From NCBI GenBank assembly GCA_964016885.1, contig OZ024740.1:106888001-106952000 (forward strand): 64,000 bases of DNA, written 5' to 3'. Positions 4,286 to 27,903 of the stretch are shown piece by piece (the first letter of the stretch is position 1; every line of letters starts with the position of its first letter). The notes beneath the pieces are model-generated. The model saw only the letters and a program-made list of their open reading frames with translations. It was not told the DNA's origin and did no database searches. The position numbers and the translations under genes are program-made. The stretch comes from Eledone cirrhosa (Eukaryota).

Positions 4286-4499
4286 CGTGCCAGTAGAGGC
4301 ATGATACAGCTAACAGTTATGCCTAAACCTGGAGTTTATAGGTATAAGTATAATATGGCGGCCAAAACAGGCGGCGCGGTGGGACTGGGGCAAAGCAATC
4401 CGTTCCGAGTAATTTCGTTTACCGAAAGAGGGGAAATTTATTTTTCCGAGCACTCAAGGAAGGCTGAACTATTAGCTGTATCATGCATCTACTGGCACG
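4286..4499. mobile_element. MITE with 33-bp terminal inverted repeats
   Basis: CGTGCCAGTAGAGGCATGATACAGCTAACAGTT (4286-4318) is the reverse complement of 4467-4499 with 2 mismatches; TA on the left flank only. Confidence 0.7.
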
Positions 4500-6079
4500 A
4501 ACGCCAAACACATCGAGGCGATCGGCACTACACTAAGAGAATACGAAGCGGTGACAGGAGCAATGATCAACCAGGAAAAGTCAGTGGGCCTGCAGCTCGG
4601 CACCTGGAGAGGCAGGTCCATGCCGTCCAACAGCATCGTCGGGCGCTGGACGGACGGACCGGTTAAATTGCTAGGGGTCTGGTTCGGTCCGGACCTCCAG
4701 ACGGACAAAAACTGGGACGAGGTGACGAGCAGGGTGGCTTCTCTCACCCAGAAATGGGCTGAGAGGAAGCTATCCCTGAAAGGTCGAGCGGAGGTGGCTA
4801 ACGCGTACATCGCGTCCGTCATCTACTACCGCCTGACCGTCGTACCTTGTCCTAAGCCCCGCCTGACTGCGCTGGAGCGTTTGCTCTTTCGCTTTTTGTG
4901 GAAGGGACGCGCTCCGATGGTCAGGCGGTCAATCTGCTGTCAACACCCGCTACGTGGAGGGCAGGGCATGCCGTGGCTGATGATGCGCAGACACGCGCTC
5001 AGGCTACGACATCTCCACCTCTTTCTCGACGGTGATCAGGTGTGATCGCCGTTTGCTAGACACGTTTTTCCCAGCTCGTCTCCTTGACGGAGCTGCAGTC
5101 CTGGGTCAAGCGAAGACCGAGAGGGAGCGCTTGGAGACTGGAATGTTTTCAGGCGCTCACAGCCCTCGACCAATCGGGCAATGTGATCGGTGGAAACTCC
5201 ACCTTGGCGTTCTATAGAGGATTAGTGGAGGGGAAGAGCGACGACGTACTTGGAGAAACTCTAGGCGTCGACGAAAATCAACTAGCCAATCTCTTCGGAA
5301 GGACTTTCGGGCCGGGACCTATGGACAACTTCCAGAAATCCCTGGCCTGGCAGTTCTACCGGGGAGCTTTGCCAGTTTGGGATAAACTCTACAGGCATGG
5401 AGGTGCCGTCAGCCGGACATGTCCGAGATGCGCGCAGGGCGACGAAACCGTCCTGCACGCACTCGTCCAGTGTCCGAGCATTGCTGACTTGTGGGTTTAT
5501 GTCGAACACCTGCTGTCACGTGTAGGACGGATCCAGCTATCAGCTGAGTCTATCGTGAGGATTGCTCCGCCCTCTTCCTTTAGCCGGGAAGGGCAGGCAG
5601 TTTTTATCTGTCTGGTGGCCATGGCGAAAGAGATAGTATGGTGGACACGTTTGAAAGGGCTGAAGACGAGCACTTACCTCTTCGGTGATGCCCTGATTAA
5701 CTTTTTCAAATTTCATTTGAAAAGGAAAATCAGGGTAGAGAGGGAAGTGCTCTCTTCCCAGCATCTTGTTGAAAGATGGGTGAGAGAAGCAAGTATGGCC
5801 CGAGTGAATGGGCCTACTCTGAGTATGTGTCTGTAAATTAAAGGTGGAAAACTGGGAGAGGGCACTTGCCCTGGTGGTCAGGGTCACTGTGGTCTTTTAA
5901 TGGGCTTTCTCCACAAATGTCCCTCGGAAGTCTCCCCCCTATTGGGGAATCTTTCTTTTTTATTTTATTACATCCTCTGTTTTTTTTTACACGCAGAAAT
6001 GCCCATTTCTACCGTCCTGTATTGTCCTGTACTGTCCTTAACGTCTACTTTATGTAAACCCTTGTGGTTAATAAAGAAA

Positions 6080-6081
<2 letters not shown>
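4498..6081 (+). mobile_element. 5'-truncated Tx1/L1-clade LINE, copy A (RT C-terminal part, CCHC finger, 3' UTR)
   Basis: ORFs 4551-5045 (INQEKS, KLLGVWF, LSLKGR, GGQGMP) and 5084-5836 (CPRC..ET..HAL..C); AATAAA then (ATT)n; closely similar to 26378-27867. Confidence 0.92.
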
Positions 6082-6111
<30 letters not shown>

Positions 6112-6123
6112 GTTATTGTTATT
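6082..6123. repeat. (ATT)n tract shared tail-to-tail by Tx1 copy A and Dong copy 1
   Basis: Seen directly. Confidence 0.95.
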
Positions 6124-9100
6124 CCTTGAATCTCAGTCATTGATGTTGGTTAACTGGAAAGTCCGTTGGATTGAATATCAAGCCACTACCTGCAGCCTCA
6201 GATATTCAGGACGTATCGGAGGGTTCTTGCTGTTCCAAGCAAGCATGCCTTTTGAAGCGTTCCAAAAAGCGTGAAGGGGCCGATTTTCTTTAACTATCCC
6301 TGGAAACCTTTGGAGATAGTCCCCAGTGCGCCTATGACAATCGGGATCACTTTGACTTCATGGCAGTTCCAAATCCTTTTCACCTCCCACTTTAGGTCCT
6401 GGTATCGGTTAATTTTCTCCCTCTCCTTCTCTTGCACTCTCGTGTCGAACGGGCAGGCCACATCCACAATCAGCCACGATCTTTTTTCTTTGTCCACAAC
6501 CACCAGGTCAGGTCTATTGTGTTCCAGTTTTTTGTCCGTCTGTATCCTAAAATCCCACAGCACCTTCACCTGACTGTTCTCCATCACCGCCTCTGGCCTA
6601 TGCTCATACCATTTCTCAGAATGTGGTAGATTGTTTACTTTGCACAGGTGCCAGTGGATCACCCTGTCCATCACATCGTGTCTCCAGCCCTTATAGTGGG
6701 TCTGGGCTAGGTGTTTACACTCGGACACAATGTGAGCCACAGTCTCCTCTCTCTCTCCACAGATCCTGCACAGTGGGCTAGCCTCCTCCTTGTAGATATG
6801 GTGCTTCAACCACTTCGTTTTGAGGGCCTGCTCCTGCGCAGCCATTAGCATTCCTTCTGTAGCCTTTTTGAGGTCTCCTCTTCTCAACCAGTTCCATGTC
6901 TGTGGATCTCTAAATTCAGTTTTCTCAAAGAAGGTACTATGAAGGGATTTTCCCTTAAGGCTGCTCTTCCTCCTTGATGTTATTTCCTCCTTGGACATCC
7001 CCTGGCCTACTGTCCCCTCCTTCAGTACAGTTCTGAGCATTGGCTCCTTACTATAGGTCACGTATTTGTATAGGTTGTTTTCTCCATCTGAACACAGTCC
7101 TCTATGCTGATAAGACCTCTTCCACCCTCAGATCTCCTTAGGTAGAGTCTATCGACATCACTCCTCTTGTGGAACATGTTGTAGATAGTCAATAGCTTCC
7201 TAGTCTTCCTATCCATTTCTTTTTGTTCAGCAACATTCCATCTCAGAATTCCCGCACTGTACCTAATAATAGACACAGCTCGGGAATTTACTGCGCTTAT
7301 GGCATTTCTGCTGTTCAGATGTGACTTCAATACGCTCCTTACTCTCCGAATGTATTCAGTTCTTAACAATTCCTTCATTTTTTTGTTCTTTATGCCATCA
7401 GCCTCCAGAACGCCCAAATACTTGTATCCTTCCTCAGAGTCAATTTCCTTTATCATCTCACCTGTTGGTATCTGGATCCCGTTACTTCTGCTCAACCTAC
7501 CCCTCTTCATCACAATGACTCCACATTTACCAATACCAAACTGCATACATATATCACTGCTGAAAATACGGACAGTGTCAACAAGCACATCCAACTCCTT
7601 CTCACTTTTCCCGAAGAGCTTAAGATCGTCCATGAAGAGGAGGTGATTGATGGTAAGCTCTCCCCTTCCCAACTTGTATCCTGCTCTCACTTTTCGCAGC
7701 ATAATGGTCAAGGGCATCAGGGCAAGGACAAACAACAGAGGGGACAGGCTATCTCCCTGGAAGATACCTCTCTTGATCTTCACGCTTCCCAAGGATACTC
7801 CAGTTGATGTCAACTCTGTCTCCCAGGACCCCATACTCCTGCCCAGCAACTGTCTGATGTTATCTGCCACCCTGAAGACCTCCAGGCTTTTGGTGATCCA
7901 GGAATGAGGCACCATGTCAAATGCCTTTCTGTAGTCTATCCATCCCATGGCAAGATCAGTGTGTCTCCTCCTGCAATTCCCCATTACCATCTTATCAATA
8001 AGCAACTGGTCCTTTGTACCACGTGACTTCTTTCGGCATCCTTTCTGTTCGTCCGGTAACAAGTTGTTTGTGTGGAGGTGATGGTAAATCTCCTCAGACA
8101 CAATGCTCGTCAACAGTTTCCACATTACGGGCAGACATGTGATAGGTCTATAGTTGGTAACATCATTACCCTTGATTCGGTCTTTCATTATCAGAACTGT
8201 GGTACCTTTTGTCAACCACTCTGGCACCTCACCCGACACCAAGCAGTCATTGAACATGGCCGTCAGCTTCGGGTGGAGGGATGTTAAATGTTTAATCCAA
8301 TACCCCTGCACACCATCTGGGCCTGGTGATTTCCAGTTGGTTAGTTTTTTGGCTTGCCCCTTAAGAGTTTCAACTGTGATACTCAAATCAGTCTGTTGTT
8401 GTGCCTTCTCACCGATCTCCCTCTGTACTGTCTCAATCCACCCTGCCTGGGCATTGTGTCTAACATCCTGCTCCCATATTCCTCTCCAGAATGTTTTAGC
8501 TTGTTCCGCCCCAGGGATCAAGTCGTTGCCTCTTTCTTTCCCCTCAAGCTGTCCAAACAGCATCTTCTGGTTGTTGTCGAACATGCGGTTCTGTTTATAC
8601 TGACTGACTCTGTTCTCGTATCGCCTGATTTTGGCACTCTTTGCTACAATGCGTTGCTTCAATTCCTCTATGATAATATTTAGCTTTTTACTCCTAGTTT
8701 TGTATTTTATTTCCAGTCTATTTTTAGTGCCTATGTTTTTTAGTGTCCCATTCAGTAGTGACTCAAGCTTTCCTATGTCATTTCTCATTTCCCCGATTTG
8801 CCCACTCAGTCGCTTCTTCCACCACGGCTCTGCTCTTTCTTGTCTGTTGTTTCCTCTCGCTTTTATACCAAGTAGTTTCCTCACCGTATTTGCTGTTGCT
8901 TTGAGGATATTGTTGCACTGGTGAAGACTCCTCGCCTCAAGGTATGGGATGACTTTGTTTACCTTAGCTGTTGTTTCTTTTAACTTTTTCCTGTCTACAA
9001 ATCTTAGGTTCATAGGTCTCCCACTATCATTGTTCAATTCATCTACCACTAGATTTAGGATGTCAACCGAATCTTGTCCTAGCCCGTCAGCATTCATCTC

Positions 9101-10695
9101 CTCAGTGGCCGTATCTCTGTTCCAGGTATTATTTATCTCAGTATTCAGATCATTGTCTGCTTCGGGTGGTTCCTCCGTTCTCAGGACCTCCTCACCTTCA
9201 TTTCCCACCGGCTCGCTTGTCTGGCATACTACACCCGCCATCTCCAAGCCATTCTCTCTGCTCAGTTCCTCCAGTTCCAGCTCGCTTATCCACCCATTAG
9301 TTCTTATTACCCGAGCCTGCCCGGCCAATTTTTGTTCATCTAATTTAAATAAACCAATCTCGTTCCAGATGTTATGCATCCGTCTCCTGTAGCCCCTCTC
9401 CTTGGGGTTACTTTTCAGGTAGCATTGCATAACAGTTCTATTCAATTCTTTCGTCCAGTTGGTTCTGGCCCCTTTCCTTCTTCTTCTTCCTCCAACATCA
9501 GCAGTATTTGGTTGACAGTCAGGTTCCTGCTGCTGAGCCAGGGGGCACCTGTTGGGTGAGAGTCTATCACATGACGTTCTAGTCTCCATTTCACCGTTAT
9601 TCGAACTGTTTATGTTCGATATTTAAACACTCTTATCGAGGATTGGCGAATATATGTTTACATAGCCATCTGTGGATCCGCCATCCCACTTGGCCCTTGT
9701 GTGGCATTATCACCACGCTGTATACGAACACACATAAACAAACAAACACACGGGCAGAAAGGGTCCCAAAAATGGATAAGCATAAGTTTCATTGTAATGT
9801 AGTATTCGAATGTCTGACTTAGTTTTTGTTTTTTAAGTTTTACTTTTTCCCCCCTCTTCTCTGTCCGTCCGCCTGCTTCCCTCTTCATTCTTATTTTCTT
9901 TACGTTTTGGGGGTTTCTTTTTTTGTTTTTGTTTTTCTCTGTTTGTTTTTCTCGTTTTTTGCTGTTGTTGCTGTGCTGCTTTGGTTTTGTTGTTTGTTTT
10001 TTCTTTTTTCTTTTGAGTCTATCTATATATTTTGATGCCTTCCTCTTTGTTAGTAGTAGGGATTCTATAATGTGGAAGTAGTAGTAGCAGCCAGCAGGGA
10101 GAAGTGGGAGAGGGCGGCGTTGGCGATACTGAGACAGTGGTGGTGGTGATGTCGATACCGAGGCAGTGGTGGCGGTGATGCGACCGTATTACTGTAGTGA
10201 TGGTGCTGTAGCGGTGGCAGCAGCAGTGAAGGAGTCAAGGGGTGGTGGCGGCGGTGATGGGATAGTGGTGGTAATGATGGCCGTAGTGAGCGGTGGCGGT
10301 GAAGGTGAAAATGCTGTTGTGTTTAGTGTACACAGATGATGGGGTGGGTGGTGTATCTAGTTTCTGGTGTTGGTGAGTTTAGCTGTCCTATATAGTGTAG
10401 CCAGAGGAGAGGAGGGGGGGGGGGTTCTTCTTCTTCCATTTATAGCCATTTTTTGGGGGGGATATACAGTGTACAATACAAAGTTGAATATTTGAATATT
10501 TGAGCCTTATAACAATATATTTTGGGTCCGAATTTTTTGGGGCTCAAGCCGGGTGCTTTACGTAGCATTTGTACTAAGAGTTGTTATTTCACAAATGATT
10601 TAAATATGTTAATTATGTTAAAAATTCAAAAAATTCAAAACTTACGGGAGCGATTTCATGACCTCCGTCACCTCGTGCGTCTTCTTCCCTTTCTC
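6124..10695 (-). mobile_element. R4/Dong-clade non-LTR retrotransposon, copy 1, apparently full length
   Basis: RT plus restriction-like endonuclease ORF; (TAA)n tracts on both sides (6082-6123, 10696-10738); the 5' boundary is inferred from the microsatellite. Confidence 0.85.
6198..9589 (-). pseudogene. Dong copy 1 polyprotein: RT (YRPI, GIFQGDSLSP, LFMDD, YKYLG, GGRGL), CCHC finger (CRIC..ETVAHIVSEC), PD-(D/E)xK endonuclease (RPDLVV..IVDV..K..Y)
   Basis: ORFs 7058-9589 and 6294-7061 are joined by one frameshift; TAG at 6294-6296 is TGG in copy 2; the frame continues LQKACLLGTARTLRYVLNI to TGA at 6198. Confidence 0.92.

Positions 10696-10738
<43 letters not shown>
10696..10738. repeat. (TTA)n tract between Dong copy 1 and the next RLE fragment
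   Basis: Seen directly. Confidence 0.97.
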
Positions 10739-11235
10739 CATTTTTATTTTCTTTCATTATTGTTTCTGAGATATTTGCCGAGTGTCTTCCTGACACCTAG
10801 GGCAAATAAATTCACAGTGTGCATTTGTAAGCCAGTTAATACAGCACATTGATTATCATTTTTAAAAAAAACAACAAAAAAAAACAGAAACATATATACA
10901 CATGTGCATATGCATATGTAAATACAAAGAGGGATATCAATCTTACAGAGATAGTGCTCTTCTCAATACGTGTGCAGTACCAGTCAAAACAATTTTTTGC
11001 ACCTCGTGCAGAGAGGGTAAACCAGGAATCATTCGCAAATATTGTTTTCTGTTCCTTTCTTGATCATTCCTAGTCCTCCCACAATCACTGGTATTGTAAC
11101 GGCCTTGAGGTGCCACATTTTCTCAATTTCAATAAGCAGATCTTTATATTTTCGTAGCTTGTCAAATTCTTTTGCCGCGATATTGTGATCACATGGGATG
11201 CTCATATCTATCAATAAACAGACCTTGTTATGTTG
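10739..11235 (-). mobile_element. 5'-truncated R4/Dong-like element of a second family (RLE C-terminus and 3' UTR)
   Basis: ORF 11029-11214 IDMSIP..K.RKYKDL..IPVIVGGLG continues as QKIVLTGTAHVLRRALSL*; (ATT)n on both sides. Confidence 0.85.
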
Positions 11236-11259
11236 ATTATTATTATTATTATTGTTGTT

Positions 11260-14200
11260 CTTTGAGCCTCAGTCATTGATGTTATTTAACTGGAAAGTTT
11301 GTTGAAATGAATATCAAGCTGCTACCTGCAGCCTCAGATATTCAGGACGTATCGGAGGGTTCTTGTTGTTCCCAGCAAGCATGCCTTTTGAAGTGTTCCA
11401 AAAAGCGGGGCTGGACTAATCTTCTTTAACCATTCTTGGAAACTCTTTGAGATAGTACCTAGTGCGCCTATGATAATCGGGACCACTTTGACTTCATGGC
11501 AGTTCCAAATCCTTTTTAACCTCCCATTTTAAGTCCTGGAATCGGTTAATTTTCTCCCTCTCCTTTTCTTGCACTCTCGTGTCGAATGGGCAGGCTACAT
11601 CTACAATCAGGCACGATCTTTTTTCCTTGTCCAAAACCACCAGGTCAGGCCTATTGTGTTCTAATTTCTTGTCCGTCTGTATCCTAAAATCCCACAGCAC
11701 CTTCACCTGATCGTTTTCTATCACCGACTCTGGCTTATGCTCATACCACTTCTCAGAATGTGGTAAATTGTTTACTTTGCATAGATGCCAGTGGACCACC
11801 CTGCCCATCACATCATATCTCCAGCCTTTATAGTGAGTCTGGGCTAGGTGTTTACACTCGGATACAATGTGAGCCACAGTCTCCTCTCTCTCTCCACAGA
11901 TCCTACACAGTGGGCTAGCCTCCTCCTTGTAAATATGGTGTTTCACCCACTTCGTTTTGAGGGCCTGCTCTTTGCTAGCCATTAGCATTCCTTCTGTAGC
12001 CTTTTTAAGATCTCTTTTTAACCAGTTCCATGTCTGTGGATCTCTAAATTCAGTTTTCTTAAAGAAGGTACTATGAACGGGTTTTTCATGAAGGTTGCTC
12101 TTCCTCTTTGTTGTTATTTCCTCCTTGGACATCCCCTGGTCTATTGTCTTCTCCTTCAGTACAATTTTGAGCATTGGCTCCCTATTGTCAGTCACGTATT
12201 TGTGCAGGTTATTTTTCTCCATTTGAACACAGTCCTCCACCTTCAGATCTCTTTAAGTAGAGTCTATCGACATCACTCCTCTTGTGGAACATGTAGTAGA
12301 TAGTCAATAGCTTCCTAGTCTTCCTATCCATTTCTTTTTGTTCAGCAACATTCCATTTCAGAATTCCCGCACTGTACCTAATAATAGACACAGCTCGGGA
12401 ATTCACTGCACTTATGACATTCCTACTATTTAGATGTGATTTTAATACGCTCCTTACTCTCCTAATGTACTCAGATCTTATCAATTCCTTTATTTTTTTG
12501 TTCTTGATGTCATCTGCCTCCAGAACACCTAAATATTTGTATCCTTCTTCAGTGTCAATTTCCTTTATCATCTCACCTGTTGATACCTGGATTCCGTTGC
12601 TTCTGCTCAATTTACCCCTCTTCATCACTAGGACTCCACACTTATTAATACCAAATTCCATACATATATCATTGCTGAAAATACGGACAGTGTCAACAAG
12701 TACATCCAACTCCTTCTCACTCTTCTCAAAGAGTTTAAGATTGTCCAAGAAGAGGAGGTGGTTGGTGGTAAGCTCTCCTTTTTCCAACTTGTATCCTGCT
12801 CTCACTTTTCGCAATATAATGGTCAGGGGTATCAGGGCAAGGACAAACAGCAGAGGGGACTATCTCCCTGGAAGATACCTCTCTTGATCTTCACGCCTCC
12901 CAGGGATTCTTCACCTGATGTTAACTCTGTTTTCCAGGACTTCATACTTTTGCTTAACAACTGTCTGATGTTATCTGCCACCTTGAAGATCTCTAGGCTT
13001 TTGGTTATCCAAGAATGAGGTACCATGTCGAATGCCTTTTTGTAATTTATCCATCCCATGGCAAGACCAGTGTGTCTCCTCTTGCAATTCCTCATTACCA
13101 TCTTATCAATAAGTAACTGGTCTTTTGTACCACGGGACTTCTTTCGGCATCCTTTCCGTTCGTCCGGTAACAAGTTGTTTATGTGGAGGTGATGGTAGAT
13201 TTCCTCAGACAGAATGCTTGTTACCAGTTTCCACATTACGGACAGACATGTGATAGGTCTATAGTTGGTAACATCATTACCCTTGATTCGGTCTTTCATT
13301 ACCAGAACTGTAGTACCTTTTGTCAACCACTCTGGTACCTCACCCGACATCAAGCAGTCATTGAACATGGTTGTCAGTTTCGGGTGGAGGGATGTTATAT
13401 TTTTAATCCAATACCCCTGCACACCATCTGGGCCTGGTGATTTCCAGTTTGTTAGTTTTTTGGCTTGCCCTTTAAGAGTTTCAACTGTGATACTCAAATC
13501 ACTTTGTTGGTGTGCTTGTTCACTAATCTTTTGTACTGTCTCAATCTACACTGCCTGACCATTATGTTCAACATCCTGCTCCCATATTCCTCTCCAGAAT
13601 GTCTTAGTCTGTTCCGCCTCAGGGATCAAGTCGCTGCCTCTTTCTTTCCCTTCAAGCTGTCCAAACAACATCTTCTGGTTGTTGTCAAACATGCGGTTCT
13701 GTCTATACTGACTGACTCTGCTCTCATACCGCCTAATCTTTGCACTTTTTGCTACAATGCGTTGCTTCAGTTCCGCTATGATAATATTTAGCTTTTTCCT
13801 CCTAGTTTTGTACTTGATTTCCAATCTATTTTTAGTGACTATATTTTGTAGTGTCCCATTCAGTAGGGACTCAAGCTTTCCAATGTTTTTTCTCATTTCC
13901 CTGATTTGACCATTCAGTCCTTTCTTCCACCAAGGTTCTAATCTTTCTTGTTTGTTGTTTCCTCTCGTTTTTATGCCAAGTAATTTCCTCACCGCATTTG
14001 CTGTTGCTTCAAGGATATTGTTGCATTTGTGAAGGTTGTTTGCCTCAAGGTATGGGATGACTTTGTTTACGCTAGCTGTTGTTTCTTTTAACTTTTTCCG
14101 GTCTACAAATCTTAGGTTCATAGGTTTTCCACTATCATTGTTCATTTCATCTACCACTAAGTTCAGGATATCAACCAAATCTTGTCTTAGCCCGTCAACA

Positions 14201-15374
14201 TTCATTTCCTCAATGGCCGTATCTTTGTTCCAGATGTTATTTATTTCAGCATTCAGATCATTGTCTGCTTCGGATGCTTCCTCAGGTCTCTCAACCTCTT
14301 CACCTTCATTTCCCACTGGCTCGTTTGCCTGGCATACTCCACTCTCCATTTCCAATCTAATCTCTCTGCTCAGTTCCTTCAGTTCCAGCTCGCTTATCCA
14401 CCCATTAGTTCTTATTACCCCGAGCCTGCCCGGCAAATTTTTGTTCATCTAAATTAAATAGACCAATCTCGTTCCAGATGTTATGCATCCGTTACCTATA
14501 GCCTTTTTCCCTGGGGTTACTCTTCAGGTAACATTCCATGACAGTTCTATTCAATTCTTTCGTCCAGTTGGTTCTTGTCCCTTTCCTTCTTCTTCTTCCT
14601 CCAACACCAGCAGTATTTAGGTGACAGCCAGGTCCCTGCTGCTGAGCGAGGGAGCACTTGCTGGGTGAGAGTCTGTCACATGGCATTCCAGTCTCCTCTT
14701 CACCGTTATTCGAACTGTTTAGGTTCGACATTTAAATACTCATATCGAGGATTGGTGAATGCATGGTTACATAACCACCGGTGATTTCATCACCCCTAGT
14801 GATTTCATCACCCCCGGTGATTTTAGCGTGGCACCTTCACGCTGTTGACGAACATAAATAAATAAACAAACAAATAGATAAAAACTTTAAAAAATAAGCA
14901 TAAGTTTCATTGTAATGTTTGAATGTCTGACTTAGTTTTTTTGTTTTTTTTCCTTTTTGTTTTTCAAGGCCAGTAACATCGGTTACTAGTGTTGTTGTTG
15001 CTGCTGCTGCTATTTTTGATTTTAGCTATGAGGGAAGTAGGGGTTGTTGCGTTCAAAACTTTTGAAATTTGTTTTTCTTTTGTTTTTGCATTTGTTTTTG
15101 TATCATTATTATTATTATATTATAGTTTAGATTTGACATCGTTTAAACTAAACATTTTGAGAGAGTTTAGAGGTACAACAACAATAATAATTATTTTTTT
15201 TGTGTTGTTGTTAGCTGTTTGACCGGGTCACTAGATCAGTCTATTTATATCTTTTTATATCTTTTCGTGACTTCCTCGCTTCTAGTCATGTGTCGTGGCA
15301 CTACTACCATCCCTCTCTTAACATGAGGTAGTGAGGGAATAGTGGTGGTAGCGATGATGCAGTGGTGATGGTGG
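11260..15374 (-). mobile_element. R4/Dong-clade element, copy 2 (diverged relative of copy 1, multiply frameshifted, extreme 5' end missing)
   Basis: ORFs 14492-14731, 13546-14448, 12832-13497, 12209-12814 and 11494-12240 are collinear with the copy 1 protein; same 3' UTR; (ATT)n at 11236-11259. Confidence 0.9.
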
Positions 15375-15756
15375 CAACACCAACAACAACACCATTAATA
15401 ACAACAGCAACAACAAAAATAACAGCGGTAAAGTCGAGAACGACAATAACAAAAATAACAGCGGTAAGGTCGAGAACGACAATAACAATGACAATAACAA
15501 CAGCCACAACAACAATAATAGTAGGAACAGTATCAACAAAAACAACAATAGTAACAACAGCCACAATAACAGTAACAACAGCAACAGTATCAACGAAAAC
15601 AACACCAACAACTGTACCAACGAAAACATCAACAATGACATCGATACCTGTACCAGCGATCTCAGCACCACCAGTAAGACCAGTAGCGGCAGCAATAGTG
15701 GTGCTGCTGAAAAAGGGACCACTTCTTTTGCAGGTGTCGCCCGAAATATCGAGACA

Positions 15757-17266
15757 GTGTTAGTCACAGAGGAGATGGCAGTCGCAAGGGCCATGGTGAC
15801 AAGAAGCGCCAATAGAGTCTCCCTGAAACCTCCACCCGATTTTTTTCAAGGACCAGCAGCTACGGACGGTGACTTACCGCACCGTAAGCAAAATCTCAAT
15901 CGGGTGGAGAGAGCCACGGAGGATCAAATCCAAAAGGCCTTGGGGTGCGTCTGGGCACGCAAAACCCACATCACCCGAGGCAGAAAGTACACCACAGTAG
16001 ACGTACTCCCCCCCCCCCCCCCCCCGCCACTCCCCCCCCCCAGGAAGCAAAGTCTCACTCTTTGGAAACCCTAAAGAGTGAGGAGATAGTCTTGGTGCCC
16101 TCCTACTGCGGGCAGAAAATTGTGAGGGTCAAAGTGACCCAGGTCCCACCCGACGTGCCCATACCTTGGCTGGTCGCGTCTGTCCTTGCTGGAATCGAGA
16201 ACAGGACGACCATGCTGCAAGTAGAGAAAATAGGGAGAGAGAACTGGTCAGGTATAGGCATGCAAATGCTTATACAAACTGACCAGGAGTGTATCAACGC
16301 TATCCCCGATATCATAGACATCGAGGAAAGACTCCAACTCCCTATAAGCGTAGAAGGAAGACGGCCAAAATGTTATCTCTGTGGGTCGAAGGGTCACCTC
16401 AGGGTCTTTTTCCCGCAGAAGACAGCGAAGAAGAAGGCCCCTCTCCTTCCAATACCTGGTCTGCTGCTACCAAGAGCAGGGCAGGCAACAAACGCAGAAG
16501 CCCCTTCCACGGTGAGTAGAAGGGCAATGTCCGTGGCACCCGTACCAAGGCCACGGACAACTAAAGCAGCAGCATCAGTGGCGGCAACACCAATAGTTAC
16601 ATTTGAAGTAGCTACACCAGCAACAAAATTGCCGAAGAGGGCTCCACTACCACCACCAACAGCCGTGGAGCACATACCCCTCCCAGACGCCACGGAATCC
16701 GACATGGATTTTGAGGCGGGTGTGAAGTGGCAAACGGTCTGCCACAAAAAAACAAAAAAAAAAAAAACCCTTAGATTCACCCTCCAAAAGCGAAGGCACA
16801 CAAAGAGGGGTAAAGGCAGCAAGGAAACTTGCAGCAACACCACCACCATCACCATCACCACCACAAGCACCACCGCCAACAACAACCACACCACCACCAG
16901 CATCACCAAAAACACCAACAACGCAAACAAAACAAAACACACACACCAAACAGCAACAAAAAGAAAACAGCAACAAAATCCCCCTCCTCCCATAAAGTAC
17001 ACAGCCATAAACATGGCAAAAAAAGAACTCATACAATATATAAAGCAGCACACAGAGATCACAGAAAAAAACTACTACACCCCACCAACACCAAGTACAC
17101 CAAGTACACCAAGTACAAACCTTTAAAACAAAAATTCACCAACGCAGTTGGAGACTTCAGAGGGTCGGATACCAAGAGGATATACACTGACATCCTCTTG
17201 GAAACATCCATGACCAGCCAAAGGGACGGTTCTACTGTCCCTTCACCACACGATCAAGGTAAGTGA
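15757..17266 (+). pseudogene. Tx1 copy B ORF1 (gag-like, zinc knuckle), frameshifted
   Basis: ORFs 15757-16074, 15945-17126 and 16829-17266 are homologous to the copy C ORF1 pieces (VERATE.QIQKAL, LVPSYCGQKIVRVK, NAVGDFR). Confidence 0.8.
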
Positions 17267-17297
17267 CCCTTTCTCACTTGCCCGTTTCTCATCCAAC

Positions 17298-20200
17298 ATG
17301 GCCGTACTCAGAATAGGCAGTATAAATGCACGTGGCCTGGGGTCATCTTGGAAGCAGGGTCACCTGCTCAACGACCTCAGGTCACTAAACATAGATGTGG
17401 TGGCCATCAGTGAGACCAGAATCTCCGAAGCACAAGCCTTCGCACCGATCTTCGGCGACTACGATGTATACGCATCTCCCAGCCGTCCAGGATCGGGGAA
17501 GAGGTTGCCGCCCTTTTTCGGAGAGGCTTAGATCTCGCCATACGGGCCATCTTCCTAGACCCAGAAGGTAAGTCGATGGTGCTGGACGTGACCGGCAGCG
17601 AAGCAATGCTTTCAGGCTAGTAGCCATCTACGCCCCAACAGGGGCAGGACGGCCAGATTTCTTCAGACGTCTAGAGACCTTTCTTGGAACGTTCCGCTCT
17701 TTAGTGTTAGTGGGCGACTGGAACGGTATCTTGGATGCACGCTGGGATTGTGTGGGGCTAGTGGATAGGGGAGGAGGGTGCAAAAGCCTCACCAACCTGC
17801 TCAGACGTTTTGAACTGTCTGACAGGTATCGACTGGATCACCCAAATGTGCCAATGTGGACATGGACAAACCGCATCGGGTCATCCAGATCGTATCTCGA
17901 TAGGGTATTCTGCAGAGAACTAGATAAGGCTAGTATAAGTTGTCCACAATTTCAAATAGTCGACTACACAGACCACAAATTTGTGATCTGTGAGATCGAC
18001 ATAGACAGACTTCATAGACAAGGGCCCGGTTACTGGAAGCTGAACGCGTCTTTCCCAGCGCGCAAAGCCTACAGAGACCGGATTAGCGTATTAGTTAAGC
18101 GGGCGTTGACGGGAGCGGTCGTCAACAACAGGTGGTGGTTCGCCCTGAAAAGGGCAATTAAAGTAGAGCCGATTAGGTTTAGCAAAGGACTAGTGATAGA
18201 GGAAAATAGAGTAGAGGGAGAGCTAGTCAGAAAGCTAGTAGAGGCGTTTAGGACAGGCATCGCAACCGACGTGCTTGCGCCGAGATTGGCACTCGACCAA
18301 TTCTTCAACGCAAAACACGAAGGCTGCGTTGTCAGAGTTAGAGCGCGTGCTCTGAAACACGAGGGGACAAAATCCGTCCAATGGGCCCGGGTGGCAGAGG
18401 CGCGACGTGGCAACAAAGCCAAAATTCGGTCTTTGTCTGACCAAAACGGGTGCGTGTTGCTCGAACCCGAGCAGATGTGTGAAGCTTTTCAGCAGCACTT
18501 TGCTGAACTGTTCAGGAGCAGCGGCGGCCCGGATCGGGGCATGGACTTCAGTGCATACCTCGACGGACTGCCTCGGCTCTCGACGACCGCAGCATAGTGT
18601 TGCGAAAAGCCAATAACAGCCGGTGATATACGGGAAGCGATGGCTAACTGCACGAGGGGTAAATCGCCAGGTTTTAGTGGTCTGCCCTACGAGCTTTATG
18701 CATTTATGCCAGACTTGTTCGGTGACCTCTTGGCAGATGTCTACTGCAAGTGGCAGCAGAACGGGAGCATTCCCAGTTTTGTGAGCCGGGGAGCGGTGGC
18801 GCTGATGAGAAAAGACCTGAACAAGGGGTATGTTATCGATAATTTCAGGCCCATAACCCTGCTAAACGCAGAGTTCAAGATTTTGGCCAAGGTGTTAGCA
18901 ACGAGGTTGGCGCTTGTCGTCAAGGGTCTGGTGGGATAGGCGCAGACATGCGCCATTCCGGACAGATCCATACACGAACACTTCCACCTCATGCGATACA
19001 TCATAGAGAGGGTGTTTAAGGAACCTGGTACGGGTGGGGCCCTGATCAACTTGGATCAATCCAAAGCATTCGATAGGGTCGACCATCGGTACCTGGCGAC
19101 GGTCCTCCAGGAAGCCGGTTTCGGGCCCGTTTTCAGGGGTTGGATCGCTGCGATGTACAGCAACATCTGCTCAGTTGTGAGGGTGAACGGTCACCTGTCG
19201 CAGCCGTTCAGCATCATGCGCTCAGTCCGCCAGGATTGTCCCCTCTCGTCCCTCTTGTACGTATTGGCTCTCGAGCCGTTACTGCACAAACTGGGGGCGA
19301 TGAGGGGCGTCCCTCGCGAACTAGGATGCGGTAAATCCGAGTCGGCTTACGCCGACGACGTCACCGTGGTGGTGTCGAGCACCAGACACGCCCAGATGCT
19401 CGGCACCGCTCTCAAGGAATACGAAGCGGTTACAGGAGCAAAGATAAACCAGGAAAAGTCGGTGGGCTTGCAGCTCGGCACCAGGAGAGGCAAGTCCATG
19501 CCGTCCGACAGCGTCGTGGGGCGTTGGATGGACGGACCGGTTAAATTGCTCGGGGTCTGGTTCGGACCGGACCTCCAGATTGAGAAAAACTGTAACGAGG
19601 TGACAAGCAAGGTGGCCTCCCTCACTCAGAAATGGGCCGAGAGGAAGCTGTCCCTCAAAGGCCGGGCGGAGGTGGCGAATGCGTACATCGCATCCGTCAT
19701 CTGCTACCGCCTCACCGTCGTCCCTTGCCCCGGCCAACTCTCACCAAAATGGAGCGCCTCCTCTTCCGCTTTTTGTGGAAGGGACGTGCTCCCATGGTCA
19801 GACGATCAATCTCCTGTCAACACCCGTTGCGTGGAGGATTGGGCATGCCATGGCTGATGATGCGCAAACATGCGCTGAGGCTGCGACATCTCTGGTGCTT
19901 CCTTGACGGTGAACAGGTGTGGTCGCCGTTCGCCAGGCACGTTTTCCCACAGCTCGTCTCCTTGACGGAGCTGCAGTCCTGGGTCAGAAAAAGACCGAGG
20001 GATAGCGCTTGGAAACTGGAATGTCTCCAGGCGGTCACTGCCCTCTGCCAGCTGGGTACCAGTATTAGTGGAACATCCACCTCGGCGTTCTATAGAGGAC
20101 TAGTGGAGGGGAAGAGCGACGACTTTCTCGGAGAGATCCTGGGCGTCGAAGAAGATCAGCTGTTTGCTCTCTTCCGGAGAACTCTCAGCCCAGGGCCTTT

Positions 20201-20714
20201 GCATAACTTTCAAAAATCCCTGGCCTGGAAGTGCTACCGGGGAGCGCTGCCGGTTCGAGATAAGCTCTACAGGCACGGAAGTGCAGTCAGCCGAGTCTGT
20301 CCGAGATGCGTGCAGAGCGACGAAACCGTCGTGCACGCACTCGTTCAGTGCCCGAGCATTGCTGACTTGTGGAGCTATGTCGAACAGTTGCTGTCACGTG
20401 TGGGACTGATCCGGTTATCGACTGAGTCCATTGTGCAGATGGTCTCGCCGTCTTCCTTCGAGGAGGAAGGGCAGGCGGTTTTCATCTGCCTGGTGGCCAT
20501 GGCCAAAGAGATTGTGTGGTGGACAAGGTTGAAAGGGTTAAAGACAGACACTTTCCTCTTCGGCGAATCCCTAATTAACTTTTTCAAGTTTCACTTGAAG
20601 AGGAAAATCAGGGTGGAGAGGCAAGTGCTGCCTTCTAGCAAGTTTGTTGAAAGGTGGGTGAATGTAGCGAGAATGGTCCGAGTGAACGGGACCGCTCTGA
20701 ATATACGTCTGTAG
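17298..20714 (+). pseudogene. Tx1 copy B ORF2 (apurinic-like endonuclease, RT, CCHC), several stops and frameshifts
   Basis: ORFs 17298-17531, 17704-18597, 18640-18939, 18991-19857, 19632-20714. Confidence 0.9.
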
Positions 20715-21036
20715 TTTGGGAAATGGAAAAATTGAGAGAGGGCGCTTGCCCTGGTGGTCAGGGTGGCCATGGTCTTTTGTGTGGTTTTCGCCACGAGTAA
20801 CCCTCGCAGGTTTCCTCCCTATTGGGGAATTTTTAATTGTTTCAATTTTCATTTTTATTGTTTATATATATATATGTTTCTATGTCTTTTTTTCTTTTCT
20901 AATATAAATAATAAAAATATTTACACGCACAAAACCCACATCGTACCGTCCTGTACCGTCCTGTGCTGTCTGTAATGATTTTCTTGATGTCAGCCCTTGT
21001 GGGCAATAAAGAAATCATTATTATTATCATTATTAT

Positions 21037-21880
21037 AGTTGCATTTATCTTGCTTTATGTTCATACGAGTTATCACCAAGTCACAACCAGTGACCTCAAG
21101 AGACAACAAGGTCCGCCATGTTCAAGAAAGAACATACATACACACACATGCATCTTTAGGTGTTTAGACTTGTGATGTAGTTATATTGACAGAATCTTCC
21201 TTAGTATATGGGCAGTTCCCATTAGTACTATCTTTTGTATTTCTCCTATACGCGGGTTTCCTGGGATTTGCGATAAGTAATCATTAGACCCCTTAGGTAT
21301 CATTCCTAGAGCGCCTACAACCACTGGTATTGGTTTAGTTCTCAATTTCCACATTTTTCCAATTTCTATCTCCAGGTCCTTATACTTGCTCAATTTTTCA
21401 AATGTTTTTATAGATACATTCTTGTCTATTGGAACGGACATATCAATTAGCAGGCATACCCTCTTTTTAAAGTCCTTCAGTATTATATCAGGTCTATTTG
21501 CATCTATTTTTCGGTCTGTTTGGATGCTAAAGTTCCACAAGATTGAGATGTGATCTTTTTCAAGTATGGGAGGTGGTTGATGCTCCCACCAATTCTTTTA
21601 ATGGGGCAGGTCAAAATGCTTACACATTATCCAATGTATGTATTATGCAGCTCTGTCATGCCTGTTTAGGTATTCGGTTGGAGCTATAGGACTGCACATT
21701 GAAATTATATGATCAATGGTCTCTGGTTGTTTTTTGCATACACGGCATAATGGGCTGCATCCATTTTTTATTATGTTGGCTTGGTAATTTTTTGTTGGCA
21801 GACACTGATCTTGTGCTGATATAATCAGTCCTTCAGTCTCCGATTTCAGTCCAGAGGATGCCAACCAATGATGGGTTAAA

Positions 21881-21881
<1 letters not shown>
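21037..21881 (-). mobile_element. 5'-truncated R4/Dong-like element of a third family (CCHC and RLE)
   Basis: ORFs 21643-21864 (ETEGLIISAQDQ, CRVC..ETIDHIISMC) and 21181-21540 (NRPDII..LIDMSVP..KYKDL..QKIVLMGTAHILRK); (ATT)n on both sides. Confidence 0.88.

Positions 21882-21937
<56 letters not shown>
21882..21937. repeat. (TTA)n tract
   Basis: Seen directly. Confidence 0.98.
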
Positions 21938-24900
21938 GAATGCTATGGTTGAGGGAGGCTCGGCTCTGTAAGGTATTGTAAATTTTGACCGTTATAACAA
22001 TTGTAAATTGTTTAAAGCTTTAACCAACTTGTAGACAAAAACACCCTCCTCCTCGTGAGAGGGGTCTTTCTGTCCGTTATTTGGCCCTTCGGGGTTAAAT
22101 AACCGCTTATTGGGGTTTTGTACCCAATATTTATTTTAAACAAAAAAAAAAACATGGCTACGAAAAAGAATTTTCATAGGTCACTCCCAATCATTCCGTC
22201 TTCTTCTTCCTCAATCGTCACTACAGCAGAGAGAATATTGTCTCTCTCCCTCCCTTCTCTAAATGTGTCTCTATCTCCCTTCTCTAAATGTGTCTCTCTC
22301 CCTCCCTTCTCTTTCGCAAGCGACGCCAGAAAAGAAAAATCACGTGCAAAGCGTGCAAGATTTCTCCACGACGACGACGACAACGACGAAAAAGGTGTGC
22401 GGGAAATACGAAAACCCATTTCATTCGTCTGACGTCAGGAATAATAGCAGTAGCAGCCGTAATAACAGGAGCAACAGTGACAAGGAAAACAACAGTAGCA
22501 GCCGCAACAGCATCAGCAGCAGCATAAACAACAACAGCATTAGCAGCAACAACAGCAGCAGCAGCAACAACAACAACAACCACAGCAACAGCGGCGGCGG
22601 CAGTAGTCGTAGTACCTGCAGCAACAACAAAAGTAACAGCAGCTCTGACGACAACAACAACAACAACAACAGCAGCAAAGAAAAACCAATCTCGTTTGCA
22701 GGTATCGCAAAGAACCTGGAAACCAACTCATAACAAATGAGGAATTAGAGGAAGCGAAGAAGATGCTGACAAAAACCGGACACCGAGCAATCTGCAAGGC
22801 AGCCGAAAAATGTTTCGAAACCCAACAGCACTGTACGGTCACGTACCGTACAGTAAGCACAAAATCCCGTAGGGTTGAAAGAGCCACAGAGGCTCAAATA
22901 CAAAAAGCCTTGGAGTCTGTGTGGCAGCGGAAAACGAACATCACCCGAGGCAAGAAATATGCCACCGTAGACGTGCTTTTTGCCACACCCCAGGAGGCAA
23001 AGGCTCAATCCTTAGTGACCCTAAGGAGCGAGGAAATGGTGTTGGTGCCCTCCTACTGCGGGCAAAAAATTGTAAGGGTCAAACTGACCCACGTCCCTCC
23101 CGGGATGGCCCCTTCTTGGCTGTCCGCGTCTGTCCTCGTCGGAATCGAGGACAAAACAACTGTACTGCAAGTACAGAAAAAAGTAAGAGAAGATTGGGTC
23201 GGCACCTCCATTGAGATGTTAATCCAAACCAACCAGGAGTGCATCGAAGCTATCCCGGATGTGATAGACTTCGATAACGGCACTTAACTGCCCATAAGTG
23301 TTGCGGGCAAACGCCCGAACTGCTTTCGCTGTGGATCGAAGACTCACCTCAGGGCCTTCTGCAACGAGAAGACTCTGAGAAAGGAGAAAACCCTCCTCCT
23401 TCCGAAACCGGCTCCACGGCTATCAGCAACAGGACAAGCGGCAAACAGGAACGATAGGTCCGTGGCACCCATACCCTCGCCACGGAAATCAAAAACAGCA
23501 GCAGCAGTGGAAGTATTAACAACAACAGTAATACCAAATGCAGCTGCAACAGAGACTCCAGTGCAAACATCACCAACAACAACAAGTTCAGAATCAGACA
23601 TGGAGTGTGAGGTGGGAGAGGGATGGCACAAACGCAGAAGCACAAAGCGCATCGTCGCCTTCGAAAAGGGAGGGAAGAAATGAAAAAAGGGTAAAGCTTA
23701 CTGCAAAGAGACTCACAGCAGCAACACCACCAACACCATCACCACCCACACTAGCACCACCAACACCACCGGCGACAACCCCACCGCCAACAACAACAAC
23801 ACCTTCAACACCACCACCACAAGCACCAACATCGCAAACACAACAAAACACACACACCCAGCAACAACGACCAGAAAATATCAGAACCACACCCCACCCC
23901 GAGAAAAACAAATGCACGGCAATAAATACACACAACAAGAAACTAATGACTTACATAATTGAACACACAGACATTTCACAGCACGACTACATAATACCAG
24001 CACCAATCAAAACGCCAACTAACATAAGACTGCTAAAAATAGCACTGAAACAATACACAAACATTAAAACGAAATTCCCCAACGCAGTTGGTGATTTCAG
24101 AGACCTAGGAGGGACTCTCAACCGGAGAGTATATTCGGACATACTCATAGAAGAGCCGACGACAAGCCGAAGGGACGATTCAACGGTCCCTTCACCAGAC
24201 GATCAAGTGAAAGGGGATGGAAAAACCATCCTTCCTCTATGATAAGTACGGTAAGAGGTCTTTCACATATTTACCACTCTATTTTAAACATGACCTCACT
24301 CAGAATAGGCAGCATAATTGCGCGTGGCTTGGGGTCGTCATGGAAGCAAGGTCACCTGCTCAACGACCTCAGGTCACTAAACATAGATGTAGTGGCCATC
24401 AGCGAGACCAGAATCTCCGAAGCACGGGCCTTCGCACCGATCTTCGGCGGCTACGATGTGTACGCATCTCCCAGCCATCCTGGATCGGGGGGGAGGAGTT
24501 GCTGTGCTTTTTCGGAGAGGTTTGGTTCTCGCCATACGGGCCATCTTCCTGGATCCAGAGGGTAAGTTGGTGGTGCTGGACGTGACCAGCGGAGACGGGC
24601 AAGCTTTCAGGCTAGTGGCCGTCTATGCCCCGACAGGAGCAGGGCGACCTGATTTCTTCCGGCGTCTGGAGACCTTTCTTGGAACTTCCCGCTCTTTAGT
24701 GTTAGTGGGCGACTGGAACGGGATCTTAGATGCACGCTGGGACTGTGTGGGATTAGCGGATAGGAGTGGAGGGTGCAAGAGCCTCACCAACCTGCTCAGG
24801 CGTTTTGAACTGTCTGAAAGGTACCGATTGGATTTCCCGAATGTGCCAATGTGGACTTGGACAAATCGCATAGAGTCATCCAGATCATATCTAGATAGAG

Positions 24901-27866
24901 TATTTTGTAGGGAAATAGATAGGTCTAGCATAGGCTGTCCACAATTCAAGATAGTCAGCTACACGCACCACAAATTCGTGATCTGTGTGCTTGACTTAGA
25001 TAGGCTTCATAGACGAGGACCCGGCTACTGGAAGTTAAACGCGTCCTTACCAGCGGGCAAGGCCTACAGAGACCGGATTAGCGAACTAGTTAAGCGGGCG
25101 TTGACGGGGGCCATCGTCAACAAAAAGTGGTGGTTTGCTCTGAAAAGAGCGATTAGAATAGAATCCATTAGGTTTAGTAAAGCTTTAGCAATAGAGAAAA
25201 ATAGAGCAGAGGGAGAACTAGTTAGAAAATTAGACGAGGCGCTTAGCAAAGGCATCGCGACCGACGTGCTTGCGGCGAAATTGGCCCTTGACCAATTCTT
25301 CAATGCAAAGCACGAAGGCTGCGTTGTCAGAGCTAGGGTGCGTGCTCTCAGACACGAGGGGACAAAAGCCGTTCAATGGGCCCGAGTGGCGGAGACGCGT
25401 CGTGGCAACAAAGCCACGATCCGGTCTTTGGTGGATCACGACGGGCGCATGCTACTCGATCCCGGTCAAATGTGTGAAGCTTTTCAGCGACACTTCGCTC
25501 AGCTGCTCGGGGGCAGCGGTGGGCCGGGTCGAGGGATGGACTTTAGTGTCTACCTCGACGGACTGCCGCGGCTCTTGGTCACTGAGGCGGAGTGTTGCGA
25601 AAAGCCGATAACAGCCGCCGAAGTAAGGGAGGCAATGACTGGCTGCACAAGGGGTAAATCGCCTGGTTTGGATGGTCTGCCCTATGAACTTTACGTACAG
25701 ATGCCAGACTTGTTCGGAGGCCTCTTGGCGGACGTCTACTGCAACTGGCAATAGAACGGGAGAATTCCCAGCTCTGTGAGCCGAGGAGCGGTGGCACTGC
25801 TGAAAAAGGATCCAAACAAGGGGGATAACATAGATAATTTCCGGCCCATAACTCTGCTAAACATAGAGTTCAAGATTTTGGCCAAGGTGCTAGCAAAGAG
25901 GTTGGCGCTTGTCGTTGGTGGTCTGGTGGGAGAGGCGCAGACATGCGCCATTCCCGACAGATCCATCCACGACAACCTCCACCTCATGCGATACATCGTA
26001 GAGAGGGTAGCTAGGGAACCTGGCACGGGTGGGTCCTTGATCAATTTAGATCAGTCGAAAGCTTTCGATAGGGTCGACCATCGTTACCTAGCGGCAGTCC
26101 TCAGGGCGGCTGGCTTTGGGCCCGTCTTCAGAGGCTGGATCGCTGCCATGCAGAGCGACATCTGCTCTGTAGTGAGAGTGAACGGTCACCTTTCGGAACC
26201 GTTCAACATCATGCGCTCGGTCCGCCAAGCATTTCCCCTCTCGTCCCTCTTGTACGTATTGACTCTCGAGCCATTACTACACAAACTGGAGACGTTGAGG
26301 GGCGTCCCGCGCGAACTAGGATGCGGAAGATCCGTGTCAGCATATGCGGACGATGTCACCGTAGTGGTGTCGAACGCCTGCAGCTCGGCGCCTGGAGAGG
26401 CAGGTCCATGCCGTCCAACAGCGTCGTTGGGCGCTGGACGGACGGACCGGTTAAATTGCTAGGGGTCTGGTATGGTCCGGACCTCCAGACGGACAAAAAC
26501 TGGGACGAGGTGACGAGGAGAGTGGCTTCTCTCACCCAGAAATGGGCGTAGAGGAAGCTATCCCTGAAAGGTCGAGCGGAGGTGGCTATTGCGTACATCG
26601 CGTCTGTCATCTGCTACCGCCTGACCGTCGTACCTTGTCCTAAGCCCCGCCTGAATGCGCTGTAGCGTTTGCTCTTTCGCTTTTTGTGGAAGGGACGCGC
26701 TCCGATGGTCAGGCGGTCCATCTGCTGTCAACACCCGCTACGTGGAGGGCTAGGCATGCCGTGGCTGATGATGCGCAGACACGCGCTCAGGCTATGACAT
26801 CTCCACCTCTTCCTCTACGGTGATCAGGTGTGGTCGCCGTTTGCTAGACACGTATTTCCCAGCTCGTCTCCTTGACGGAGCTGCAGTCCTGGGTCAAGAG
26901 AAGACCGAGAGGGAGCGCCTGAAGACATTCCAGTCTCCAGGCCCTCGACCAATCGGGCAATGTGATCGGTGGAAACTCCACCTCGGCGTTCTATAGAAGA
27001 TTAGTGGAGGGGAAGAGCGACGACAGTACTTGGGGAAACTCTAGGCGTCGACGAAAATCAACTAGCCAATCTTTTTGGAAGAACTTTCGGGCCGGGACCT
27101 ATGGACAATTTCCAGAAATCTCTGGCCTGGCAGTGCTACCGAGGAGCCTTGCCAGTTCGGGATAAACTCTACAGGCATGGAGGTGCCGTCAGCCGGGCAT
27201 GTCCGAGATGCGCGCATGGCGACGAAACCGTCCTGCACGCACTCGTCCAGTGTCCGAAAATTGCTGACTTGTGTGTTTATGTCGAACACCTGCTGTCGCG
27301 TGTAGGAAGGATCCGGCTATCATCTGAGTCTATCGTGAGGATTGCCCGCCCTCTTCCTTTAGCCGGGAAGGGCAAGCAGTTTTTATCTGTCTGGTGGCAA
27401 TGGCGAAAGAGATAGTATGGTGGACACGTTTGAAAGGGCTGAAGACGAGTACTTACCTCTTCGGTGATGCCCTGATTGACTTTTTCAAATTTCATTTGAA
27501 AAGGAAAATCGGAGTAAAGAGGGAAGTGCTCTCTTCCCAGCATTTTGTTGAAAGATGGGTGAGAGAAGCAAGAATGGCCCGAGTGAATGGGCCTACTCTG
27601 AGTACGTATCTGTAAATTAAAGGTGGAAAACTGGGAGAGGGCACTTGCCTTGGTGGTCAGGGTCACTGTGGCCTTTTACTGGGCTTTCTCCACAAATGTC
27701 CCTCCGAAGTCTCCCCCCTATTGGGGAATTTTTCATTGTTATTTTTTTGTTACATCCTCTGTTTTTGTTTTTTTACACGCAGAAATGCCCATTTGTACCG
27801 TCCTGTATTGTCCTGTACTGTCCTTAATGTCTACTTTATGTAAACCCTTGTGGTTAATAAAGAAAA

Positions 27867-27867
<1 letters not shown>
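21938..27867 (+). mobile_element. Tx1/L1-clade LINE, copy C, apparently full length but disrupted
   Basis: 5' UTR; ORF1 from ATG 22154 with Ser/Asn-rich tract and CFRCGSKTHLRAFC knuckle; ORF2 from ATG 24290 to 27615; AATAAA then (ATT)n at 27868-27901; (ATT)n also on the 5' side. Confidence 0.92.
24290..27615 (+). pseudogene. Tx1 copy C ORF2 (APE-RT-CCHC) with stops, frameshifts and an internal deletion near 26378
   Basis: ORFs 24239-24565, 24456-25754, 25776-26462, 26321-26551, 27101-27415, 27394-27615. Confidence 0.9.

Positions 27868-27900
<33 letters not shown>

Positions 27901-27903
<3 letters not shown>

Follow-up and report, generated by a model that had tools for sequence, protein, structure and literature searches.

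Tx1-type and Dong-type retrotransposons of Eledone cirrhosa occupy (ATT)n microsatellites in fixed opposite orientations

Background

Why should seven copies of long interspersed elements (LINEs) from two unrelated groups stand end to end, joined by (ATT)n microsatellite tracts, with each group facing its own way? This question is raised by a 23-kb chain of retrotransposons (positions 4498 to 27902) in a stretch of 64,000 nucleotides from Eledone cirrhosa (assembly GCA_964016885.1, contig OZ024740.1, positions 106,888,001 to 106,952,000 of the forward strand), which we call the window. One group, of Tx1 type, carries an apurinic-like endonuclease (APE), and the other, of Dong type, a restriction-like endonuclease (RLE).

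We compared the window with other copies of its elements, and use L-numbers (for example, L324) as labels of individual genomic copies or loci. Quite likely, the chain arose through independent insertions of LINEs from two unrelated groups, which share (ATT)n/(TAA)n in fixed opposite orientations. Our best reading is that the two clades, together with a short interspersed element (SINE) that is probably driven by Tx1, share one target that survives each insertion. The relation between Tx1 and Dong is thus symmetric co-use of a target, not the seeding of one by the other.

Results and discussion

Polarity across the genome

Six end-anchored sets were assembled from the best 30 matches each, with the window's own copy removed. 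This yielded 174 ends, each set holding 29 copies chosen for their closeness to those of the window rather than drawn at random. An end was scored as positive when at least three ATT units lay within 45 nucleotides (nt). By this measure, 165 of the 174 nonself ends carry ATT in the polarity seen in the window, and none carries AAT. Tracts are found at Dong 3' ends (83/87) and 5' ends (29/29), as well as at Tx1 5' ends (29/29) and 3' ends (24/29). Polarity is also kept by 107 of the 109 neighbors across the tract that were classified, by a classifier that misses a few cases visible by eye (L030 and L039 are Dong-adjacent) and that counts L257 as a violation from one weak match.

An unselected control sample consisted of 99 of 100 evenly spaced 10-kb stretches (0.99 Mb). 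Here, the motif for Tx1-type 3' ends matched 22 times: ATT came next in 11 cases and ATCT-type repeats in 10, and one match was false. AAT followed none of these ends; the trinucleotide tract was ATT wherever there was one (11 of 11), and all six Dong 3' ends had TAA. The polarity is beyond chance, and the opposite polarity of Tx1 and Dong in (ATT)n holds genome-wide. Strict opposite polarity of two unrelated LINE clades, which the original prediction had read from this one locus, is borne out by these counts, and the tabulated flanks and orientations show a fixed polarity, neither random orientation nor nonmicrosatellite flanks.

The chain in the window

At its left edge, the chain begins where the cut 5' end of Tx1-A abuts, without (ATT)n, a small element whose termini are 39-bp inverted repeats (4286-4499, no strand assigned). 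Tx1-A (4498-6081, + strand) is the 3' 1.6 kb of a member of the Tx1 A/C family, comprising the end of the second open reading frame (ORF2) with zf-RVT and a hairpin in the 3' untranslated region (UTR), and is 96.8% identical to the full-length copy L324. An (ATT)n tract of 14 units (6082-6123, +) joins it tail to tail with Dong1 (6124-10692, -), a full-length RLE element of 4.57 kb with a single frameshift near 7061-7127. Dong1 is 98.8% identical to L330, in which the frame of 1141 codons is open. A (TTA)n tract of about 17 units (10696-10748, +) separates the Dong1 5' end from the 3' end of Dong family 2 (10749-11235, -), a 5'-truncated, 487-bp 3' end that is followed by (ATT)6 (11236-11253, +). 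Next, Dong2 (11254-15374, -) represents a subfamily 87.8% alike to Dong1, has several stops and frameshifts, and contains within its 5' UTR, which is cut at about 15374, an (ATT)5 site (15105-15119, +) that is unoccupied in this copy.

Tx1-B (15375-21016, +), of a second Tx1 family, begins within ORF1, and its ORF2, with APE, reverse transcriptase (RT) and zinc finger, is in pieces. Through an imperfect (ATT)n tract of about seven units (21017-21036, +), it meets Dong family 3 tail to tail (21037-21881, -), a 5'-truncated, 845-bp 3' end that includes CCHC and PD..D motifs. A (TTA)18 tract (21882-21937, +) then forms a head-to-head junction with Tx1-C (21938-27867, +), a full-length A/C-family element of 5.9 kb with broken ORFs and an internal 83-bp deletion at about 26377, and (ATT)11 (27868-27902, +) forms the right edge of the chain.

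Tracts are present at six of the seven listed junctions, the exception being that of Dong2 and Tx1-B at about 15374/15375. Both of these elements fall short of their 5' ends there, and a deletion likely accounts for the missing ends. The (ATT)5 at 15105-15119 was ruled out as the missing junction tract, since it sits inside the Dong2 5' UTR. Contigs of four sequencing runs contain no bridge over this junction, which carries no weight either way.

Tx1-A and Tx1-C are one family (93.9% identity), and Tx1-B, at 81% to Tx1-A, is a second. Because Dong1 and Dong2 are so alike and families 2 and 3 show only 37% and 43% protein likeness to Dong1, the RLE elements of the chain fall into three families. 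Family 3 was also considered as a fixed-length nonautonomous element, and this was ruled out because other copies extend beyond the window's break. On each of these points the layout agrees with what had been proposed for the locus: seven LINE copies in the given order and orientation, (ATT)n at every junction except one, and four RLE elements from three families.

Identity of the two groups

In L324, a full-length relative of Tx1-C, ORF1 carries a CX2CX4HX4C CCHC knuckle and is followed by an open frame of 1204 codons. This ORF2 matches the Pfam families Exo_endo_phos, RVT_1, and zf-RVT, aligns to the endonuclease of L1 (L1-EN), and has intact catalytic motifs (N, E, GDWN, D, DH, and YADD). 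Protein searches gave no named Tx1 reference among 57 matches, nor among 12 matches in another; the element layout and the short ORF2 would fit the Tx1 clade. Microsatellite-specific Tx1 families have been recognized by the presence of one repeat at both flanks of more than 20% of copies (PMC4494074; this and the other reports are cited for the passages available to us), and the family described here falls among them.

The Dong1 relative L330 encodes a single 1141-codon ORF with RT, CCHC, RHD, PD..D, and K motifs, in which no APE and no endonuclease/phosphatase Pfam match was found. The best Protein Data Bank matches for this protein are R2 proteins (E = 6e-26, versus 1e-13 for L1). Among the best 120 of 186 protein matches none bears a clade name, and the putative Dong/R4 assignment rests on layout and target. 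Named protein matches include Argonauta and Octopus entries; metagenome contigs contained no confirmed relatives. Among six full-length Dong1 relatives, all flanked by (TAA)n, an open frame of 1138-1145 codons is found in four, and the copies are 98-99% alike. Judged by their sequences, both families are young, and young copies of both keep intact frames and catalytic motifs.

Two departures from (TAA)n were noted among RLE elements. One Dong1/2 3' end (L018) lies within a pure (GAA)n tract, equivalent to (TTC)n. A further RLE element (L177, positions 4796-6100), 27-34% alike to Dong1, has its 3' end apparently in a (CATA)n tract.

Tx1 targeting and an associated SINE

All 29 full-length Tx1 5' ends are preceded by a tract, with a median of nine units. 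In 20 Tx1 loci of 10 kb, which overlap these 29 copies, ATT is found at 20/20 5' flanks and 19/19 resolved 3' flanks (one of them ATT/ATC-mixed). Full-length copies of Tx1 and of Dong have a tract on both sides. Target-site duplications (TSDs) are readable in three of 22 truncated Tx1 copies (L040, 17 bp; L041, 10 bp; L179, 21 bp), and no tail extends past the TSD in L040, L041, or L051. Because the readable 3' flanks (L040 and L041) consist of the target duplication alone, the Tx1 "tail" is largely target, and (ATT)n is the Tx1 family's own target, with no obligatory added tail.

A SINE of about 190 nt (for background, see PMC4758252) has the same polarity as Tx1 and the same 3' stem with the loop CTTGT, and this common stem includes changed stem pairs. 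TSDs of 8-20 bp flank 45 of 115 random SINE copies, versus 28 of 1296 shuffled pairs. Tx1-type copies and the SINE both duplicate targets that begin at (C/T)|ATTAT: each position of ATTAT is kept in 32-33 of 34 duplicated targets, and the preceding C/T in 28 of 34. These features suggest that the SINE is likely moved by this Tx1 lineage.

Two observations on the Tx1 group itself may be added. Three Tx1-C copies (L314, L320, and L326) have in common the sequence ATTATC right past the usual 3' end, hinting at an RNA that reaches a few bases into the flank of a master copy. Also, a sister Tx1 lineage with 70-77% DNA identity has (ATCT)n at both flanks and forms tandem chains of its own (L165, L168, L176, L184, L215, L216, L219, L225, and L244). 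The endonucleases of the two lineages are about 55-57% alike, and the endonuclease hairpin loop, a feature tied to target specificity (PMC1950540), differs between the (ATT)n and (ATCT)n lineages (NRIGSSR versus NRSGTSR/NRNGSSR).

How the chain may have grown

In target-primed reverse transcription, the Tx1 APE would nick the AAT strand and the Dong RLE the ATT strand, and the fixed opposite orientation is likely a consequence of nicking opposite strands of the same repeat. Each insertion would leave usable tract on both flanks, so that chains could grow by repeated insertions, including those of a SINE presumably mobilized by this Tx1 lineage. The neighbor across a tract can be any of Tx1, SINE, or Dong, in the fixed polarity.

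Another LINE lies across the tract at 79 of the 174 anchored ends, which puts the chance of six links in a row near 1%. The unselected sample contained 11 Tx1 and six Dong ends per 0.99 Mb, giving rough totals, for a genome of 3.0 Gb, of about 33,000 and 18,000 ends. From a chance of about 1% and these totals, chains as long as the one in the window are expected in the hundreds, and its length is the expected upper tail. Shorter chains were observed directly (L319, L320, L328, and L329).

Several observations weigh against shared use of one persisting target. In the random sample, Dong is present on three of 10 tracts bordered by Tx1 versus two of 52 others (p = 0.026), with two of the three being a single locus, L217. 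Full-length Dong1 copies (L251-L279) have 5' tracts mostly of 15-25 units, exceeding those of truncated copies as well as the 3' tracts (median of 18 units, n = 29, versus 6.5 in young truncated copies, n = 36; p = 3e-5), and Dong may therefore add tract. Eight of 11 random Tx1 ends begin with at least four pure units versus two of 115 SINEs, such units being available at 5% of ATTAT sites, and a pentamer-specific endonuclease alone fails to explain this gap. Candidate explanations are pairing of an RNA-borne (AUU)n tail with the target, mobilization of the SINE by some other partner, and purifying selection that removes LINE insertions outside tracts. The 3' hairpin cannot name the SINE's partner, because it is also present in the (ATCT)n lineage. 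The strands nicked, like the SINE's partner, are what we infer.

Alternative explanations

According to the original prediction, the 3' tail of Tx1 is itself the source of Dong's target: Tx1 would add an (ATT)n tail with each insertion, and Dong would prefer to land in those tails. The association in the random sample just described (Tx1 3' ends border 10 of its 62 tracts) is what this explanation would lead one to expect, as are three truncated Tx1 copies (L034, L044, and L177) that are followed by a long tract but preceded by none. However, the predicted enrichment of tail-to-tail junctions was not found. Tx1 3' ends adjoin 14 of 87 Dong 3' ends from three families and 10 of 62 random tracts (16% versus 16%, p = 1.0); against Dong-free tracts (7/57) p = 0.63, and against long Dong-free tracts (5/24) p = 0.55. 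The intervals of 9-26% and 8-28% are wide, so there is room for a modest excess. The other Dong 3' ends have as neighbors Dong 5' ends or truncations (27), SINE 3' ends (20; a comparison unfair to the background, because the four-unit threshold leaves out the majority of SINE flanks), or unclassified flanks (26), and the greatest excess is that of Dong next to Dong (27/87 versus 3/62, p = 5e-5). Head-to-head contact of Tx1 with Dong is as common as the tail-to-tail kind (10/29 Tx1 5' ends; 6/29 meet other Tx1 ends), and both the tract ahead of every full-length Tx1 copy and the TSDs without further tail speak against a Tx1-made target. Seeding of Dong by Tx1 tails is not supported, and we regard it as very improbable. 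Of the partnership envisaged between two clades, the part that stands is that both use (ATT)n/(TAA)n and that this target outlasts each insertion; one-way seeding is the part that falls. Still less credible, indeed extremely improbable, is the idea that the chain is an assembly artifact or that Tx1-Dong units were copied together by segmental duplication or 3' transduction. Its junctions are indeed simple repeats, and one near-identical pair (L048/L049) is known, but similar chains with different members and truncation points occur at many loci on several chromosomes, and inner insertions are surrounded by TSDs. In the 14 tail-to-tail pairs, one of which is that near-duplicate, the halves have no common history (Mantel r = -0.13, p = 0.76), which rules out copying as units.

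The dependence could also run the other way, with Dong supplying or lengthening the tract through its 5' tract, 3' tail, and UTR site, and the Tx1 lineage and SINE colonizing it. The long Dong1 5' tracts given above are one point in its favor. At 35 junctions, one of them the window's, a Tx1 or SINE end lies just ahead of a Dong 3' end; four can be ordered (L133, L143, L283, and L285), and in all four the SINE inserted after Dong, because its TSD takes in Dong's terminal bases. This test sees only the SINE-after-Dong direction, and no junction of a Tx1 LINE could be ordered. A separate search, lying inside Dong2 and outside the six end-anchored sets, showed the (ATT)5 site of the 5' UTR to be occupied in 22 of 29 other Dong2 copies (L281-L309), or in 20 of 27 when Dong2 sequence has to be seen at both its flanks. 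Among random CATTATTAT sites, nine of 48 are occupied (p = 9e-7 against the 22 of 29). Occupied Dong2 copies hold between one and three SINEs, whose 5' breaks vary, and in one case also Tx1-B. A similar T-preceded tract in another repeat is occupied in none of 13 random-sample copies, the Dong2 copies being somewhat older than that repeat (88% versus 91% pairwise identity). In the Dong1 subfamily, the corresponding 900 nt hold no SINE in 29 of 29 copies. The UTR hot spot, the ordered junctions, and the long 5' tracts lean toward Dong as a supplier. Yet Dong is absent next to 19 of 29 full-length Tx1 5' ends, and the copies inspected offer no clean case of Dong adding units at a known empty site, nor an empty site with de novo tract synthesis. 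As a full account of the chain, dependence on Dong appears improbable to us.

A further resemblance connects the two clades. The leader of the Dong2 subfamily (L286) aligns in sense with the 5' ends of two Tx1 families (L044 and L166; z = 15.6 and 7.9, 0/200 shuffles, reverse-strand control z < 1), whereas that of the window's Dong1 (10480-10692) is not clearly significant against Tx1 5' ends (z = 0.4-2.9, reverse-strand controls as high). One might imagine Dong as a nursery. Full-length Dong would bring or select a tract of about 18 units, and one subfamily would bear a Tx1-related leader as well as a 5' UTR site that the Tx1 machinery hits four times as often as comparable sites; the clades, being interdependent, would provide one another with places to land and a promoter, and each would keep to its own strand of the microsatellite. 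This proposal is doubtful, and separate insertions into a shared tract remain our preferred account of the chain.

Other features of the window

Just past the last tract lies an imperfect palindrome of 200 bp (27891-28096), a dispersed repeat, and a match to mir-974 (27962-28047) is below the gathering score and outside the chain. At 28352-29776, a pair of 123-bp inverted repeats flanks a 158-codon frame with no Pfam match, which we take to resemble the RT end of a Penelope element. The long open frames at 44502-47538 belong to an unrelated APE-RT LINE, which is followed by (TA)n rather than (ATT)n. A 46-bp satellite with 175 copies and strong GC skew (55990-64000) continues past the end of the window.

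Comparison with known systems

Insertion into TAA repeats is established for Dong elements, including Bombyx Dong, DongAg, and, in a mollusc, DongBg of the snail Biomphalaria (PMC3812793). Like these members of the R4 lineage (PMC3812793, PMC3774820), the elements described here encode RT and, at the C terminus, CCHC and RLE in a single ORF, and carry (TAA)n on the sense strand at both flanks. Unlike known Dong elements, they comprise at least three families with roughly 18,000 3' ends and share their tracts with an APE element. Bombyx Dong has a ribozyme like that of hepatitis delta virus at its 5' junction (PMC3774820). At the Dong 5' ends studied here, neither Rfam nor a descriptor of our own, used without positive-control validation, gave any match to such a ribozyme. 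Passages on octopus repeats describe Dong-R4 and L1-Tx1 elements as abundant or recently active and name no targets (PMC13282606, PMC8967140).

Microsatellite-specific Tx1 families include Kibi in (TC)n, Koshi in (TTC)n, and crocodilian families in (TTCC)n or (TTTC)n (PMC4494074). The Tx1 elements of the window are likewise two-ORF APE LINEs set in a microsatellite in one orientation; they differ in their target, (ATT)n, with (ATCT)n in the sister lineage, and Figure 3 or the supplements of PMC4494074, or Repbase, may list such targets. A genome with two closely related Tx1 lineages that differ in target and in the endonuclease hairpin loop provides a natural test bed for target choice by LINE endonucleases. 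As with crocodilian SINEU and Tx1-Mar (PMC4494074), a SINE shares the Tx1 target and makes tandem insertions around the TSD. The target of that pair is a Mariner element, whereas here it is a pentamer plus a microsatellite, to which the SINE is far less confined than the LINE; this is a case of a LINE and a likely partner SINE with sharply different target stringency. Literature searches found no report of a Tx1 element in (ATT)n or of co-targeting by Tx1 and Dong (figures, supplements, Repbase, and subscription papers were outside their scope). (ATT)n is likely a new Tx1 target, which is shared by strand with Dong. With 26 of 62 random tracts adjoining one of Tx1, SINE, or Dong, (ATT)n tracts are often element junctions, a point to bear in mind when markers are designed and repeats annotated.

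TRAS and SART belong to the R1 clade. In Bombyx, they insert in opposite directions into one tandem repeat, of which two to three units suffice for recognition (PMC7265360), and they resemble the present system as two LINE families that face opposite ways in one repeat. Both are APE elements of telomeric repeats; in contrast, the loci described here are interstitial, on many contigs, and the dispersed repeat is used by the unrelated enzyme classes APE and RLE. R1 and R2 co-target 28S ribosomal DNA in the same orientation. Keno and Utopia in U2 genes also bring an APE and an RLE element to one repeated target (Keno, PMC4494074; Utopia and R2, PMC4640811). In those systems the sites are fixed positions in RNA genes, whereas the target here is a microsatellite renewed at each insertion, a case of APE and RLE enzymes dividing one dispersed repeat by strand.

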